IMG/VR virus record: IMGVR_UViG_2541047698_000018
Source: a virus
Taxonomy: Duplodnaviria > Heunggongvirae > Uroviricota > Caudoviricetes
Reading direction: 5' to 3' (one strand)
Length of the DNA: 42,267 bases
In this document: positions 1 through 38,772 of the stretch, one piece after another
Layout: every line of letters begins with the position of its first letter
How positions within the stretch are numbered: position 1 is the first letter of the stretch
Position numbers and translations under genes: made by a program
Notes under the pieces: model-generated
What the model saw: the letters and a program-made list of their open reading frames with translations, nothing else
The model's database searches: none
What the model was told of the DNA's origin: nothing

Positions 1-267
1 ATGCGCAGAAAAGAATCAAACGTTAGCAGTTTGCCGGAACTCACCAATTTTGAGGTAAGCTATTCCCTAGTTACCAATGAAGTTTACTTGTCTGCATCCT
101 TCACTGATAACATGGCCTGTATACCAAACTGGCCCTTACAAGAATTTCCGGATCAACTAATATGCATTTCTCGAGCAAAAGCTATTGCCCTAATCGAAGA
201 GCTCCAGAAAACCATCGACTATATGGACGCAGGAATCGATCGACAATCAGGTAGCCTGCTCCAGTAG
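1..267 (+). CDS. C-terminal fragment of hypothetical protein (5' end outside window)
   Basis: ORF open to window start (88 codons); AT-rich; no motif recognised. Confidence 0.3.
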   Translation: MRRKESNVSSLPELTNFEVSYSLVTNEVYLSASFTDNMACIPNWPLQEFPDQLICISRAKAIALIEELQKTIDYMDAGIDRQSGSLLQ

Positions 268-401
268 CTGGCGAGTTTTATACTCGTTCCCTGCAACAAT
301 GGGCTTTTGGTAAGGCACTCACAAATAAGGAATTCGTTAAGGTTTTTGTTCTGGAGACTCTGAAAGATACAAGGAATCAGTTGATGGCTGGTTTGATCAT
401 A

Positions 402-440
402 CTAATTAATATATTGTCAGACTCACAATATATTAATTAG
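402..440. repeat. Perfect 16-bp inverted repeat with 7-bp spacer; candidate operator upstream of cargo gene
   Basis: ctaattaatatattgt-cagactc-acaatatattaattag; arms are exact reverse complements. Confidence 0.5.
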
Positions 441-568
441 TGGTAGAACATAAAACCGAGTTCTTGACTTTCAATAGCTATTATATGCGATCAACAACCT
501 TAACCACCTTCTTATATTTTATGAGATACTCAAACAATTTAAATTTATGAGCAAAGGAAAATAATAAA

Positions 569-1414
569 GTGAATAAAAATCCCTGGGATATTCCAGCATG
601 GCACGCTCTGGGCCGAGAAGCATCTTTAGTTACACAGCTCATTGGTTCTGGGGCAACAGCCATAGGTAAAGCCAATTATGCAGACAAAATAGGTGAATAT
701 TACACAGCATTTTTTGGGCTTTCTGTAGGTTTTGAGAGACTTGCTAAACTAATACTTGTTGCACACTATGCCATTGAACACAAAGGGAAAATGCCTGACG
801 AGAATATTGTAAGAAAATTTGGACATAAGCTCATTGAATTAACCAACGAGGTTGATAGTATTTCTAAAAAAATGCAACTATCTCTGAGATATTCACGTCC
901 TACACATAAAATTACCTACAAAATACTTGAATGTTTAGATTCCTTTGCTGATGCCCGACGGGGACGTTACGCAAATTTCTCCTCATTAAGCAGCCCCAAT
1001 TTAACCGATAATGAACCTATTAATAAATGGTGGGGAGAAGTAGCCGAGAGTATCCTTGAAAAACATTATTATTATACAGTTGAACAAAGACGTGTTGAAG
1101 AAAATGCTAGGTTTATCAATGCCACTCTTTCACCGTATACAACGGTCATGTATATGAATGAAAGTACCAACATTATGCAAGACCTTATATCAGCCTCCAT
1201 CCGTACTGGACAAAATACCATTGTTCAAAAGTGGGGAAGATTCTATTCTCTTAGCATCGCTCGTTGGCTTGCCACAGTATTAGCAGAACTGTCTGATATA
1301 GCTTCTCATAAATATGGAATAATTAGTTTTTATGGCCTTAGTGAACATTGTTGCAGTTATATAGTTGAAGATAGTTTTTTAAAAAACAGAAAAATATGGC
1401 CACTTCGCCAATAG
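569..1414 (+). CDS. Hypothetical AT-rich cargo protein (281 aa)
   Basis: Intact ORF, GTG start with AAGGA Shine-Dalgarno upstream; AT-rich unlike neighbouring tail genes; sits where e14 carries mcrA next to pin. Confidence 0.5.
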   Translation: MNKNPWDIPAWHALGREASLVTQLIGSGATAIGKANYADKIGEYYTAFFGLSVGFERLAKLILVAHYAIEHKGKMPDENIVRKFGHKLIELTNEVDSISKKMQLSLRYSRPTHKITYKILECLDSFADARRGRYANFSSLSSPNLTDNEPINKWWGEVAESILEKHYYYTVEQRRVEENARFINATLSPYTTVMYMNESTNIMQDLISASIRTGQNTIVQKWGRFYSLSIARWLATVLAELSDIASHKYGIISFYGLSEHCCSYIVEDSFLKNRKIWPLRQ

Positions 1415-1418
1415 TTAA

Positions 1419-1733
1419 CTAGAAAATCTTCATAAGGGGGAGAAATCCCCCACCTGTAATAACATCACTACTAAAATTAACACCTTGTTCGCACAACTCC
1501 TCCACCAGCACGACAAGATGCCGCACACTGCGCCCCAGCCGATCCAGCTTCCAGACAACCAGAGTGTCACCTGCCGATAATGTCCTGAGCAGTTTTTTCA
1601 GTCCCGGCCTTTCGGACTTTGTACCGCTTATCTTGTCTTCAAAAATCAGCTCGCATCCTGCACAGTTCAACGCATTACGTTGTAGATCGGTATTCTGGTC
1701 ATTTGTTGATACGCGTACATAGCCAATAAGCAT
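1419..1733 (-). pseudogene. pin: DNA invertase (Pin/Gin/Hin serine recombinase), 3'-truncated
   Basis: MLIGYVRVSTNDQNTDLQRN...LVVWKLDRLGRS matches Pin/Gin N-terminus including catalytic Ser motif; similarity ends near residue 88, ORF stops at about 105 aa vs about 185 aa expected; C-terminal DNA-binding domain absent. Confidence 0.75.
1436..1451. other. GC hairpin (ggggga-gaaa-tccccc) at cargo/invertase junction
   Basis: 6-bp G/C stem with GAAA loop 22 nt after the cargo stop; coincides with the point where invertase homology is lost. Confidence 0.4.
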
Positions 1734-1789: not shown

Positions 1790-1813
1790 TTCATAAACGT
1801 TGGTTTGGGAGAA
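1790..1813. repeat. gix/hix-like inversion site (left)
   Basis: ttcataaacgttggtttgggagaa; inverted copy at 3656-3680; encodes N-V-G-L-G-E in frame in the alternate fibre cassette. Confidence 0.6.
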
Positions 1814-2152
1814 GCGGCAAAAAGGAATGTGGGGACAGGGACGAATCAGATACCTGATATGGGTAGCTTCACGCTTTCTGTTTCAGGTACTGGATATCAA
1901 AAATTACCATCTGGTTTTATTCTTCAGTGGGGCTCAATCGGCGCATCAGGCATTGCACAGGATGTGGTAACCCATTTTCCGATTGCATTTCCAAACCGAT
2001 GTCTGCGTGTTTTGGTCTCACAAGACTACACACCAGATAGCGGGGCTGTTGGTTATATTGCCTGTGCAGGTTTTAGTCCCGACCCGGTTAAATTTATATC
2101 CAGAGCCAGTACTCCTGGCCTCGGCGCTTCATTTTTAGCGTTAGGCTGTTAA
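1790..2152 (+). CDS. Alternate tail-fibre C-terminal cassette (promoterless, inside invertible segment)
   Basis: Open frame from the gix-like site; ...[24 protein letters not shown]... parallels ...[11 protein letters not shown]... in the expressed fibre. Confidence 0.6.
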
Positions 2153-2173
2153 TTTAGCTATATGGAGTGAAAA

Positions 2174-2614
2174 ATGAATTACATATATTCCGCGACTACA
2201 AACTCTTTCTATCCGCTGGAGATGAAAGAGGATTACACTCAAGCTGACTCATGGCCAGATGATGCTGTTGAAGTTGATGAGCAAGTGTATATTGAGTTTT
2301 CCGGATTACCGCCGGAAGGAAAAATCCGTATCGCTGGAGAAAATGGTTTTCCTGCATGGTCTGAAATTCCACCACCAACACATGAGGAACAGATTGCTGC
2401 AGCCGAACTGGAAAAGCAGCAACTGATTAATCAGGCCAACGATTATATGAACAGTAAACAATGGCCTGGTAAAGCGGCTATTGGTCGTCTGAAAGGTGAG
2501 GAACTGGCGCAATATAATCTGTGGCTGGATTATCTGGACGCACTGGAGCTGGTCGATACTTCCAGTGCGCCAGATATTGAATGGCCTACGCCTCCGGCAG
2601 TTCAGGCCAGATGA
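2174..2614 (+). CDS. Tail fibre assembly protein (alternate copy)
   Basis: 146 aa directly after alternate fibre cassette; C-terminal ...LDYLDALELVDTSSAPDIEWPTPP shared with the minus-strand Tfa. Confidence 0.7.
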   Translation: MNYIYSATTNSFYPLEMKEDYTQADSWPDDAVEVDEQVYIEFSGLPPEGKIRIAGENGFPAWSEIPPPTHEEQIAAAELEKQQLINQANDYMNSKQWPGKAAIGRLKGEELAQYNLWLDYLDALELVDTSSAPDIEWPTPPAVQAR

Positions 2615-3188
2615 CATCCGGCGCGGTGCTGGTATCTGTTGCCGTCACCGCGTCAATGTAATCCAGCACAGCGTTAAGCCGGGTTGTTTCTGCCTGCGTC
2701 AGTTTCCGCCCGGCCTGTAATTTCAGCTGAATCAGACTAATGGAAGCCATTGCTGCATCAATCAGTGACTGGCGCTGTGCTTCTGCCGCTTCTACTGCGG
2801 CACCGTGTTGTGCCTCAGAATCTGTCACCCATTTCTCACCATCCCATTTATCATATGGCGTTAACGGGACGATAGTGGTTGTATTTTCAGGGTAATCACC
2901 CGGAGCTGTGATTTCTTTTGCTTCTCCTGTTTCGGTGCTATAGATAATTTCACCGCGATGGTCTGGCATATATTCCCATGAGTTTAAATCTACTGAACGG
3001 CAGATTGCATAACCAGCCTTATATGTGCCAGGAGCATCTAAACAGGAATATGCCGGGATACCGACACCAACGGCAAGATATTCATTTGAAGTGGAAATAT
3101 ATTCCCGTGTTTCACCATCATAGTTATAGACGGTAATATTCCCCGCCTTCGTGGCAATAAGTTCGCTATTTAATACGGCTTTATCCAT
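2586..3188 (-). CDS. Tail fibre assembly protein
   Basis: 200 aa immediately after fibre gene; C-terminal ...LDYIDAVTATDTSTAPDVIWPELP. Confidence 0.7.
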   Translation of the reverse strand: MDKAVLNSELIATKAGNITVYNYDGETREYISTSNEYLAVGVGIPAYSCLDAPGTYKAGYAICRSVDLNSWEYMPDHRGEIIYSTETGEAKEITAPGDYPENTTTIVPLTPYDKWDGEKWVTDSEAQHGAAVEAAEAQRQSLIDAAMASISLIQLKLQAGRKLTQAETTRLNAVLDYIDAVTATDTSTAPDVIWPELPEA

Positions 3189-4024
3189 TATGCAGCTCTC
3201 ACGATATAGTTAAATGCAATATTTCGTGGACGGGTTTCGCTCCCACCTGTGTTACCAATACTCCCTCGTGTATGTAGCGTTGGTGATGGAATCAGGGTTC
3301 CTCCGGCATCGGCAGCATCAAGCCCCCGGCCTTGCGTATATGCTCTTCTGAAGATTGTCGCCAGTTCCCATTCCTCTTTTGAATCATACCCATCGTTGGC
3401 AACAACAATATGGCGGTGTTTTTCCAGCATCCCAGTCTGAATGCTCAATAAAGCACGTCCTGCATCAATACCACGCCCGTCATCCCATCCACGAATAAAC
3501 TCACCACGGAGATCAGGTAGTTTCCCTGATGGATATGCTGTAGCAAGATGGGGATATTTCACCTTATCAAAGGCAGCGCCGTTGCATTTCAGCCAGCCCG
3601 TTGGCGGGGTTGCGGAGGGCCACGGAACAGGCACACCAACAGGTAATGCAGAGCCTTCTCCCAAACCAAGGTTTTTGAGAGCCGTTTTCACCGTGCCATC
3701 CGATTTGATATCACCAAACGGATTCTTGCGGCTCAGGTATTCAACAGCAAACCCCGATCCCAGCAATTCAACAAAACCGGGCAGATCACCATTATCAAGC
3801 ACATCCCGTTGCGTTTTATCACTTACAAACTGGGCCAGAGCTGCAGCAATAAAGCTGGCCTGCCGAATAACCTTATTGACTTGCGCACTGGAGGCTTTCC
3901 CTGCTGTAAATCCGGATAAAAGCGCGGGCAACGCTTCCCATTCCTCCTGCGATATAACATTGGCATTTCGATCCGTTGCAAACGCTTTAAAGTCATTTTT
4001 CGCCATCAGAGTAATACTCCCCAT
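3188..4024 (-). CDS. Tail fibre protein (currently expressed orientation)
   Basis: 278 aa; constant N-terminus, variable C-terminus beginning at the gix-like site; followed by Tfa. Confidence 0.75.
3656..3680. repeat. gix/hix-like inversion site (right), inside fibre gene
   Basis: ttctcccaaaccaaggtttttgaga is the near-exact reverse complement of 1790-1813. Confidence 0.6.
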
Positions 4025-29829: not shown

Positions 29830-30399
29830 TTACTGGTTGTAAGGATCGTAATCCGTGATTGCCTTCCCCGGATTTTCATCTTCAGCAGGCAGTCTGGCCT
29901 CTAAAGCATTTCGGTTGAACAGATAGGAAGCCCTACAGTGCGAACAAACCATATTAACGGCTCGCCCAAGGCCTGGCTTAATAACCAGACCTTCCGCTTG
30001 CAATATAGATTTTCTCTTTTGCTCGTAGCAATTGGGACAAATATAAACCGGAGATTGGTCAGTATCTGCAGAAAGCTTGCTGCGATAGACCAGAGTACCC
30101 CGCATAGGCTGGTAAAGTTCATAGCTCGCCGCTTCAGCGGCCCAGTTCTCTTGCTTTACTTTCTCATTTTCCAGTTCAACAATTTTCTCCTTAGCCGCAA
30201 TCAGCAGCTCCTGAAGCGACATTTGCTGCATCTGAACATCCATTAGCTTATCGAGTAAGGTGTGCGTCTTCTCTTTAACTGCATAGTCGACAGTCAGATT
30301 CTGAATCTCTCTTGCTGCTCCAACCGCGCCTTTAATTGCTCCTCCCACGCCGGATAACGATTCAGTTATCCGGGAAAGAATTCCTTTTTCTTCAGACAT
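29830..30399 (-). CDS. Hypothetical coiled-coil/zinc-ribbon protein, convergent with PL
   Basis: 189 aa; central heptad-like region; C-terminal CPNC...CSHC; sits at the rex-equivalent position next to cI. Confidence 0.55.
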   Translation of the reverse strand: MSEEKGILSRITESLSGVGGAIKGAVGAAREIQNLTVDYAVKEKTHTLLDKLMDVQMQQMSLQELLIAAKEKIVELENEKVKQENWAAEAASYELYQPMRGTLVYRSKLSADTDQSPVYICPNCYEQKRKSILQAEGLVIKPGLGRAVNMVCSHCRASYLFNRNALEARLPAEDENPGKAITDYDPYNQ

Positions 30400-33592: not shown

Positions 33593-34222
33593 TCACTCAG
33601 GAATCTTAATCTTTCTCAATTCTTTATTTAGTTCACAGATCTTTTTCTTAGACGGGAAAGTATCATACATCCAAAAACCAACAGTCTCTAAAACTATTAT
33701 CATAACCATATACACAAGATAATTTAAAAGGCCTTCATTTTGCCCTATGGAAATAATGCAGATAATAGAAAAAAGGGTAAACAGCACAAAACACAGAAAG
33801 GAAAACAGACGACTAACAATAAATAAAAAACCTGAAAAATCAACATTAATAAAAAACACTCCGTTATCTTTCTCTATATAATTCTGAAGCTTAATCAACT
33901 GATTTATATACTGTCTTTTTTCTAATCTATTGCAAATGTAAATAACATCTCTTCGGTTATAAGAGGATTGCAATTTCAGCGCATCACGAATAATTTTATC
34001 ATTTATTCTTTTTTCTATGGCACTCTTATCCTCCTCATCCAGATAACGTTCATACTTAACTAAATATAAAATTAACTTCTTGACATATTTAGGCTCTTTA
34101 TACTTATAATTAAAAATGATCTTTCTTATCCAGACTCCCATAACAATCAAACATGAAAAAATATATCCAGCTATTTTCTCCAGATGCTCTGTATGGTCAA
34201 TCAAGTATTGGATCATATGCAT
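33593..34222 (-). CDS. AT-rich multi-pass membrane protein (moron, opposite strand)
   Basis: 209 aa; Lys/Ile/Tyr-rich; N-terminal and C-terminal hydrophobic helices; antisense to replication operon. Confidence 0.5.
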   Translation of the reverse strand: MHMIQYLIDHTEHLEKIAGYIFSCLIVMGVWIRKIIFNYKYKEPKYVKKLILYLVKYERYLDEEDKSAIEKRINDKIIRDALKLQSSYNRRDVIYICNRLEKRQYINQLIKLQNYIEKDNGVFFINVDFSGFLFIVSRLFSFLCFVLFTLFSIICIISIGQNEGLLNYLVYMVMIIVLETVGFWMYDTFPSKKKICELNKELRKIKIPE

Positions 34223-36396: not shown

Positions 36397-37158
36397 ATGC
36401 AGGAACTAACTGAAATGCCGATCACCTATCCATACCCGAGAGAATCTTTTCCTGACTTTTTGAGGGAGTGTGGGTTCACCAATTTTTCCCACGAACAGCG
36501 TGAGACTTGTGACTGCTATCGTTTAACGAATGGCGTAATTGTTAACCTTTACACCACCCGGACCATTCAGTTTCAAGGTAACCCTCAAGAACGTCCCAAT
36601 GTTGAAACTGCAATAATGACCCATTTAGGAACGCCGCCCACGGCAACACCACTAGCCGTAGAACAGCCATCTGAGCTCCCCAAAAAGATATTCATTGTTC
36701 ACGGCCATGACCATACTGCAAAGGAGCAACTTGAGCTAATCCTTCATAAACTTGGATTACCAGACCATTTCATTTTGCAGAATACGGGAGGGACTGGACT
36801 CACCATTATTGAAGAGCTTGAACGTGAAATTGGGCAAGGACAAACTGCTACCCGTTTCGGGATTGTTCTTTTGACACCTGATGATATGGGATACTCAAAG
36901 CGCGCCGGTGAAGCAGAAATCCAACCCCGCGCAAGACAGAACGTTGTACTCGAGATGGGTATGCTTCTTTCGTCCTTAGGGCGCAGCAATGTAGCAATCC
37001 TTCAGAAACAGCACCTAGAACAGCCTTCTGATGCTAACGGGATTTTGTATCTGAATTTCAACGACCATGTACGTGAAACAGTTCCTCGTCTAGTGCAACG
37101 GTTACAAAATTCTGGTTTCGAATTTACACAAGCTCAAATAGCTAACGCTTCCTCGTAA
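36397..37158 (+). CDS. TIR-like (COG4271/PF10137-type) nucleotide-binding domain protein with unknown N-terminal domain
   Basis: 253 aa; KKIFIVHGHD, VLLTPDD, ARQNVVLEMGMLLSSLGR resemble the TIR-like family as recalled. Confidence 0.5.
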   Translation: MQELTEMPITYPYPRESFPDFLRECGFTNFSHEQRETCDCYRLTNGVIVNLYTTRTIQFQGNPQERPNVETAIMTHLGTPPTATPLAVEQPSELPKKIFIVHGHDHTAKEQLELILHKLGLPDHFILQNTGGTGLTIIEELEREIGQGQTATRFGIVLLTPDDMGYSKRAGEAEIQPRARQNVVLEMGMLLSSLGRSNVAILQKQHLEQPSDANGILYLNFNDHVRETVPRLVQRLQNSGFEFTQAQIANASS

Positions 37159-38169: not shown

Positions 38170-38772
38170 TTAAATTGAATAAAACTCTACGGTAAGAACA
38201 TCTGTAGTCAGAACCAACACACCTAAAGTTCGTTCTTTAGGTCTATCAAACCCACCGTCATCATTGATGTGCCAACTTTCAATCAAATAAATTTGCTCAG
38301 GTTCTGGGCTGCTTGAGGCAAAGGCATTACCTGCGTACAGCCCCCCTATTTTTTTACCATCTTTTAGGGTGATAATAACCCAACAAGCAGGAGCATTCCT
38401 GAAGAAAAAATCCCATGGACGCCCCACTGGATGCGGCAATTTATTTCTAAAAAACTGCGATTCTCTTAATTTATACAGAGCTACAGGAAGCAACGATGGA
38501 GATATAAAAAACGCTAAGAAGTACATTAGATAATATAAAAACAATGAATAATCAAATAAGTTATTCCGCTCTGCGAAATAAATCGGGAAAAACCAAATAG
38601 CATAATTAATGCAGCTATAAGCAACAGCATCAATAATTATTTTGGATGACTCTTTTTTAACCGAAGGATGAAGTGCTTCGTACACTTTTATACTAATAAA
38701 TCCAGGAACCACAAAAATAATAAAAATAAATAGTTTATCAAAGCTCCAAATATCCATACTTCTCTCCACCAT
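38170..38772 (-). CDS. AT-rich membrane protein with C-terminal soluble domain
   Basis: 200 aa; about 3 hydrophobic helices in the first 110 aa; opposite strand to flanking replication genes. Confidence 0.5.
   Translation of the reverse strand: MVERSMDIWSFDKLFIFIIFVVPGFISIKVYEALHPSVKKESSKIIIDAVAYSCINYAIWFFPIYFAERNNLFDYSLFLYYLMYFLAFFISPSLLPVALYKLRESQFFRNKLPHPVGRPWDFFFRNAPACWVIITLKDGKKIGGLYAGNAFASSSPEPEQIYLIESWHINDDGGFDRPKERTLGVLVLTTDVLTVEFYSI

Follow-up and report, generated by a model that had tools for sequence, protein, structure and literature searches.

What is a single A+T-rich gene doing at the end of an Escherichia coli prophage, in the position where the e14 element carries mcrA? The gene, here called X, lies in IMG/VR virus record IMGVR_UViG_2541047698_000018, a Caudoviricetes sequence of 42,267 nucleotides (hereafter the window, meaning the whole stretch of DNA that was analysed). 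The window is almost exactly one E. coli prophage of roughly 42 kb, inserted between yfhH and yfhL. Over its first 1800 nucleotides (1-1800) it matches the chromosome of E. coli BCE049 (locus L001) at 100% identity; there, a tyrosine integrase lies at the far end of the prophage and the tail-fibre genes at the near end. Three induced phages, vB_EcoM-606R2, -611R5 and -683R1, match the same segment at 98.9%. An initial annotation of the window had drawn attention to an A+T-rich gene for a 281-residue protein. This gene is indeed present as an open reading frame (ORF) at 569-1414 on the + strand, with a G+C content of 0.37 against 0.49 for the whole window (12 points lower), and RefSeq lists its product as hypothetical protein WP_021517243.1.

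We propose that X may be a stand-alone immunity or abortive-infection effector that provides superinfection exclusion in the lysogen, a reading to which we assign a probability of about 0.5. We favour it because X is a mobile, low-G+C ORF subject to strong purifying selection, its relatives show a strong, position-specific association with type I restriction-modification (R-M) operons, no partner gene accompanies it, and its predicted fold is HEPN-like. The embedding in type I R-M operons and the predicted fold are what suggest defence in particular.

Mobility, conservation and genomic context of X

X belongs to a large and widely distributed protein family. Searches returned 486 matches among 90%-identity clusters, and the family comprises ∼950 clusters at 50% identity. 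Its members come from Gamma-, Alpha- and Betaproteobacteria, Actinomycetota, Nitrospinota, Gemmatimonadota, Acidobacteriota and Planctomycetota, and every one of them bears the database name 'hypothetical protein'. Literature searches with the accession of X and with the phage name found nothing. The proteins are single-domain, ∼275 residues in length and nearly always between 265 and 290. No domain fusions were found in the longer members, whose extensions look like mis-called starts or read-through.

Conservation within the family is concentrated in a small set of residues. E17, E56, K60, H86, F126, Y134 and W154 are invariant; R57, R133, N136, E198, R232 and D268, together with an Arg or Lys at position 82, are nearly so. 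The invariant residues are retained down to 25–30% identity. The combination E17, E56-R57-x-x-K60, [R/K]82-x3-H86, R133-Y134-x-N136, W154, R232 and D268 is a candidate functional site. The ratio of nonsynonymous to synonymous substitution rates (dN/dS) is 0.06–0.19 in informative pairs, and X is an intact gene under purifying selection.

Sequence comparisons also show that X was acquired horizontally and moves as a bare ORF among prophages, IncX1 plasmids, integrase islands and type I R-M operons. At the DNA level, similarity between these contexts is limited to the ORF and 16–37 bp upstream, and no recognisable mobility ends were found at X. The X ORF is 2–16 G+C points below its surroundings in 10/10 homologue loci. 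A GTG start codon is found in all 11 copies examined, those of the window and ten homologues (loci including L003, L009, L078, L084, L085, L088 and L090-L092 in the start and G+C comparison).

The context of X was surveyed in 63 homologue loci; a scan that took one genome per species supplied 60 of these. The complete order hsdM-hsdS-X-hsdR was found in 12 of the 63, with X co-oriented between hsdS and hsdR, and an hsdR gene or fragment adjoins X in three further loci. Whenever hsdS or hsdR is the immediate neighbour of X, the two genes either overlap or are separated by no more than ∼20 bp. For example, the start of a 56%-identical homologue situated between hsdS and hsdR overlaps the hsdS stop. 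In an integrase island with Vsr, HNH and DUF4917 genes, a 73%-identical homologue from Enterobacter/Klebsiella follows hsdM-hsdS-hsdR at a distance of 86 bp. When the neighbours were clustered over all 63 loci, only hsd genes recurred, and no partner gene emerged. Elsewhere, X lies among housekeeping genes, and integrases, AbiEii-type ATPases, Abi_C and Phd antitoxins were its commonest neighbours.

The family extends to plasmids and other viruses. A distant homologue is present in 134 PLSDB plasmid records, mostly conjugative and from Escherichia, Klebsiella and Salmonella. The IncX1 plasmid pYLMB49c (locus L076, 4968-5789) encodes a full-length family member of 273 residues (hhalign probability 99.9%), located beside RiboL-PSP-HEPN and ApeA-HEPN genes and dinQ-like type I toxins. 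X is also carried as cargo in two other viral contigs, one of them near an invertase. On IMG/VR contig 2904513164_000002 (L092, 864-1703), a 70%-identical X lies between an SRAP (YedK-like) gene and umuDC. An intact 192-residue invertase is found ∼3 kb away, so that a second phage lineage also has X as cargo close to a tail-fibre invertase.

The position between hsdS and hsdR has a known occupant. The prr locus is arranged hsdM-hsdS-prrC-hsdR, and PrrC of the EcoprrI type Ic R-M locus thus shares its gene position and orientation with the 12 embedded X homologues. TgvAB in Vibrio is another embedded example, and one with an experimental test. Genes embedded in type I R-M operons are reported to be predominantly defence genes, and PrrC to be almost exclusively embedded there (Payne et al. 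2024, 10.1101/2024.01.29.577857). The PDC/HEC candidates (Payne et al. 2024; PADLOC-DB v2) rest on the same type of evidence, an uncharacterised gene nested in a type I R-M locus; X, however, is not among the 145 PDC families and has no PADLOC match.

Predicted fold, defence and the alternatives

An AlphaFold2 model of X, built with 30 homologues, is all-alpha, with a mean predicted local distance difference test score (pLDDT) of 81 and a predicted template modelling score (pTM) of 0.83. The predicted helices form an up-down bundle of the HEPN type, and X therefore probably adopts a HEPN-like helical fold. Foldseek found nothing significant for the model in PDB or BFVD, neither of two alignments retrieved anything in sequence-profile searches of PDB, and hhalign of X against the plasmid RiboL-PSP-HEPN protein returned a probability of 0.2%. 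Nor was X matched in Pfam, PHROGs or PADLOC. NCBIfam gave one noise-level match, to HdrC (E = 0.054, 13 bits against a cutoff of 350). Across Pfam, NCBIfam, PHROGs and PADLOC, X thus matches no conserved structural or housekeeping family; such a match would have told against the cargo-gene view of the initial annotation. A GH(D)L motif was considered as a sign of an HD-phosphohydrolase, and this was rejected: its Asp is present in only 38 of 86 family members. No ATPase domain was found in X or its 86 relatives.

As a defence effector, X would remain latent in the lysogen until an infection cue switched it on. For the copies embedded in R-M operons, inactivation of the Hsd complex could provide the cue, as it does for PrrC. 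For the prophage copy, a phage protein could play this part, as it does for HepS. Activated X would then attack RNA or some other essential target, and superinfecting phages would fail.

Each of the known proteins that X recalls also differs from it. PrrC has a nuclease domain of the HEPN class, but X lacks its N-terminal ABC/NTPase domain and has no Pfam match, and most X copies, including that of the window, are not located by hsd genes. HepS of the Salmonella Gifsy-1 prophage (PDB 9oik) is a single-HEPN abortive-infection nuclease that, on sensing a phage protein, cuts tRNA anticodon loops (PMC13043305). X has no detectable sequence similarity to HepS, lacks a conserved Rx4-6H motif, and is larger by ∼150 additional C-terminal residues. 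AbiV (HEPN_AbiV, PF18728; 10.1101/2024.05.05.592566) is shorter, with 152 residues in PDB 9bj5 chain A, and its match within the X family is at noise level and does not recur.

Several observations weigh against a role in defence. No link at the sequence level joins X to any defence family. The PADLOC-DB v2 library, including its PDC models, recognises the TIR gene of the same prophage as PDC-S35 at E = 7e-109, our positive control. Nonetheless, it connects neither X nor its 86 relatives to defence; among the relatives it gave five isolated matches, all at noise level. For the 281-residue protein itself, the PADLOC profile search that the initial annotation had put forward as a check gave no match at E ≤ 1. 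Pfam likewise yields no recurrent match in the 86 relatives; one HEPN_AbiV match at E = 0.009 is at noise level, and an isolated HD_4 match is also at ∼0.009. NCBIfam and PHROGs scans of these divergent relatives likewise produced nothing above isolated noise. In the model, the most conserved motif, residues 129–150, has a pLDDT below 50. The canonical HEPN motif Rx4-6H is not conserved at its expected site (residues 110–116), where Arg is found in 15 and His in 43 of 86 family members. In the window's X these residues are R-P-T-H-K-I-T, and Thr replaces the His. An Arg or Lys is located at −4 from the invariant His86, but the resulting [R/K]-x3-H differs in spacing from the canonical motif. 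Finally, about three quarters of the homologues are solitary among housekeeping genes, and the window's X lies in a prophage and has no hsd neighbour, so that a PrrC-like guard mechanism is not directly transferable to it. Because the Rx4-6H motif is not conserved, the corresponding chemistry is unlikely for X, and we do not class it as a canonical HEPN RNase.

A more far-reaching version of the defence reading is that X founds a widespread orphan HEPN-like family, without Rx4-6H but with another conserved site, whose members are PrrC-style guards of type I R-M repeatedly captured by phages and IncX plasmids for use as stand-alone immunity genes. We hold this version to be doubtful. If true, X would represent a new single-gene defence system, with a chemistry or trigger undescribed for HEPN proteins.

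Three other explanations were weighed against a defence effector, and a small part of the probability falls on none of the four. X could modulate type I R-M, tuning or delaying restriction within hsd operons as a kind of establishment control, and serving on phages and plasmids as an alleviation or anti-restriction factor that shields their own DNA; lambda Ral and Rac Lar are the comparison for restriction alleviation. This is unlikely. For a dedicated regulator it would be strange that hsd genes are lacking near most homologues, and the invariant E17, E56, K60, H86 and Y134 are more suggestive of a site for catalysis or ligand binding. A helical protein of 281 residues is also unlike the anti-restriction proteins known to us, which are small and acidic or DNA mimics. 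On IncX1 plasmids, moreover, X sits among toxin-like HEPN genes.

There is similarly little probability that X is a HEPN-like nucleotide- or ligand-binding or regulatory protein outside defence, such as a nucleotidyltransferase substrate-binding domain or an MtlR-type protein, whose links to mobile elements and R-M reflect hitch-hiking. No nucleotidyltransferase or other partner recurs beside X. Its patchy spread over at least seven phyla, its G+C deficit and its mobility as a bare ORF are typical of selfish or defence cargo, not of metabolism. In addition, type I R-M embedding occurs in 20% of the sampled species, which by rough estimate is far above the background for a random gene.

The least probable reading is that X is a selfish toxin or addiction-type gene, or an inert passenger here, kept by linkage and horizontal spread without benefit to the lysogen: the missing partner gene, the weak GTG start conserved in 11/11 copies examined, the type I toxins and HEPN toxin-like genes near X on IncX1 plasmids and the single configuration of all 44/44 E. 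coli copies, which suggests one acquisition that spread with the prophage, would fit it, but a solitary toxin without antitoxin or regulator is hard to maintain, and the low dN/dS (0.06–0.19) and full length kept in ∼950 clusters argue for a selected protein function.

Should X prove to be a defence effector, a large unannotated family (∼950 clusters at 50% identity in at least seven phyla, with members in E. coli prophages and IncX1 plasmids) would join the bacterial immune repertoire. It would also be the second effector, after PrrC, in the hsdS-hsdR position, and the idea that R-M guards act against anti-restriction would become directly testable with a small, partner-less protein. Should it not, X would be an ordinary moron. 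Variable cargo slots at prophage ends and candidates identified by their embedding in other loci are already known. Less ordinary are how large the X family is, that it is entirely unannotated and missing from current defence catalogues, and that it has lost the canonical HEPN motif but keeps another invariant set of residues. X is thus a good candidate for testing rather than a surprise to the specialist.

A variable cargo slot at the prophage end

The slot that holds X was surveyed in 5426 complete E. coli genomes, 159 of which carry the shared 120-bp prophage end at yfhH-yfhL. The cargo of the window is present in 44 genomes, always in one configuration. Genomes with an empty site match the host flank up to 103 bp past yfhH, which corresponds to ∼207 bp before window position 1. 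Two versions of the slot were seen, differing from ∼86 bp before the window to position 1472. The second version is found in both other carriers examined, CUVET16-465 and EC0585 (loci L075 and L083). There, an intact pinE lies beside genes for a 108-residue hypothetical protein, a 183-residue DUF2335 predicted membrane protein and a 53-residue hypothetical protein (L075 4561-5619; L083 5247-6305), and none of these alternative cargo genes has a PADLOC match. In CS6L, a related prophage at another chromosomal site, pinE lies directly against host DNA with no cargo gene, and in Brunovirus SEN34 an acyltransferase occupies the same slot. Because of these two versions at yfhH-yfhL, the cargo-less relative and the SEN34 acyltransferase, we call the slot a variable cargo position, whose content differs among related prophages at the same backbone position. 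The variable accessory locus that the initial annotation had anticipated is thus borne out, and its content is not invariant across related prophages.

Within the window, the slot (1-1472), which is att-proximal, is a mosaic of an 88-residue phage gene, a dinI-like remnant, a palindrome, X and a broken pin gene (Table 1). G+C content over 301-1500 is 0.32–0.39, compared with 0.44–0.55 in the adjacent tail genes.

Table 1. Features of the cargo slot and the adjoining tail-fibre region (window coordinates)
Feature	Position	Strand	Details
Complete 88-residue phage ORF, phrog_17793	1..267	+	First gene inside the prophage end; part of the segment differing from the alternative cargo variant
dinI-like 3′ remnant	290..409	+	∼40 codons, no start codon; 75–76% DNA identity to annotated DinI-like genes, ∼560 E. 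coli genomes
Perfect 17-bp inverted repeat	401..441 (arms 401-417, 425-441)		ACTAATTAATATATTGT, 7-nt spacer, ACAATATATTAATTAGT; mostly A/T, few G-C pairs
Sigma-70-like promoter candidate	491..518	+	TCAACA, 16 nt, TATATT; 50 bp upstream of GTG; 9/12 consensus positions
Cargo gene X, 281 residues	569..1414	+	GTG start; AGGAAA Shine-Dalgarno-like sequence before start
Short G+C hairpin	1436..1451		GGGGGA GAAA TCCCCC; between X stop and invertase junction; −12.7 kcal/mol, z = −1.66
Pin/Gin-family serine invertase remnant	1419..1733	-	Codons 1-89 intact (1733 to 1467), then 15 unrelated codons and a stop
Invertible tail-fibre segment	1791..3678		24-nt crossover inverted repeats, 1791-1814 and 3655-3678

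The first of these features had been taken for a fragment that implied a larger cargo island, and this view does not hold. The ORF is complete, matching positions 1–88 of 91 in phrog_17793 and gene 31 of Salmonella phage SEN34 (SEN34_31) at 83% identity over 88/88 residues. A truncated gene of a bigger island is rejected by these full-length matches and by the segment boundary, since the variable segment begins ∼86 bp, and the empty-site boundary lies ∼207 bp, before the window start. The counterpart of the 88-residue gene in SEN34 adjoins the integrase gene, and the SEN34 attP probably lies beside these two genes. The ORF is absent from the CUVET16-465 locus (L075).

The dinI-like remnant aligns to the last 116 nt of an 82-residue dinI-like gene. 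The palindrome begins at the former stop codon of this remnant, which thus falls within the left arm. The initial annotation had noted a perfect inverted repeat of 16 bp upstream of X; the repeat is real and perfect, but its length is 17 bp. It ends 128 bp upstream of the X start codon and folds at −17 kcal/mol (z = −4.6), with 0/200 shuffled sequences folding as well. At up to three mismatches, 0.09 chance occurrences of a repeat arm are expected in the window, and no further copy of the palindrome is present in it. In IMG/VR the palindrome is confined to this prophage type, no equivalent repeat lies upstream of seven X homologues, and an Rfam search of 1-1900 found no RNA family. The palindrome was ruled out as part of a gene cassette or as a repeated operator, as it is specific to this prophage type, unrepeated and without counterpart at the homologues. 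It may serve as a hairpin at which the upstream remnant ends, act as an operator, or be a scar left at a junction.

The transcription signals around X, both the promoter-like site and the hairpins, are consensus-level evidence, whereas the G+C deficit is clear. The region contains 10 promoter-like sites, compared with 5.0 ± 1.8 in shuffled sequences, and the candidate at 491-518 is thus suggestive only. The hairpin downstream of X has no T-tract on the + strand, is not called as a terminator, and its fold is not statistically unusual.

The arrangement of tail fibre, invertible segment, pin and cargo had been likened to the pinE-mcrA end of e14, and the order in E. coli MG1655 confirms this likeness. 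There, the invertible stfP/tfaP-tfaE/stfE segment is followed by pinE, mcrA and the prophage end, the same topology of an invertible segment, a pin gene and one cargo gene. In contrast to e14, the pin gene of the window is truncated, X is transcribed towards pin while the e14 cargo is transcribed away from it, and the 88-residue ORF and the dinI remnant also share the slot. McrA is a methylation-dependent HNH type IV restriction enzyme. As had been claimed, X is unrelated to it, with no match to HNH or to Pfam or PADLOC restriction-enzyme profiles. An analogy of function with McrA was rejected, as X has no HNH or other nuclease signature; the likeness is positional only.

SEN34 offers another parallel, with the same baseplate and tail-fibre backbone, the same 88-residue gene by the integrase, and a variable accessory gene in its lysogenic-conversion slot, which lies between the tail-fibre genes and the integrase end. 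The cargo itself differs, being in SEN34 an acyltransferase that probably has a part in O-antigen modification and in the window prophage X with the dinI remnant. In SfV-like Shigella phages, gtr genes occupy a comparable position.

Invertase remnant, tail-fibre inversion and other genes of the prophage

The invertase beside X is a pseudogene, because only 89 of 184 residues are kept and the HTH_7 domain is gone; RefSeq labels it accordingly. Residues 1–89 are identical to intact 184-residue PinE at 84 of 89 positions (94%), and similarity ends thereafter. The C-terminal 95 residues, including HTH_7, are missing, and the remnant matches only the Resolvase N-terminal domain (profile positions 2–97 of 145). 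DNA homology to other pin genes stops at window position 1473, exactly where the cargo abuts. The initial annotation had held that acquisition of the cargo removed the 3′ end of the invertase. The loss is real and this view fits the junction at 1473, although arrival of the cargo and loss of the pin 3′ end may have been two separate steps.

The invertible segment contains two tail-fibre-assembly genes and alternative tail-fibre C-termini (Caudo_TAP twice, Gp53-like_C and Collar). Window positions 1795-3678 align in reverse to the BCE049 prophage (L001 13792-15675) at 99.8%, in prophages that are otherwise 99.8–100% identical. Among the 30 near-identical copies listed, the neighbour of the pin remnant is gp53-like in 20 and a 'phage tail protein' in nine. 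Both orientations are therefore common among near-identical copies, and tail-fibre inversion seems to continue despite the dead invertase in cis. Most of the genomes with these copies also have a second pin-like locus, and the inversion is presumably driven in trans by other Pin-family enzymes. At this locus, a cargo swap at the prophage end can thus destroy the cis invertase while tail-fibre switching apparently persists through invertases acting in trans.

Further candidate accessory genes are located elsewhere in the prophage. Three ORFs on the - strand in the replication/early region, encoding a DUF6338 protein (38170-38772) and two hypothetical proteins (33593-34222 and 29830-30399), are opposed to their neighbours and look moron-like; none has a PADLOC match. 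Beside the phage DNA polymerase gene, the TIR-domain protein that served as our positive control (253 residues, 36397-37158, + strand) is, by its PDC-S35 match, a second candidate defence gene of the same prophage.

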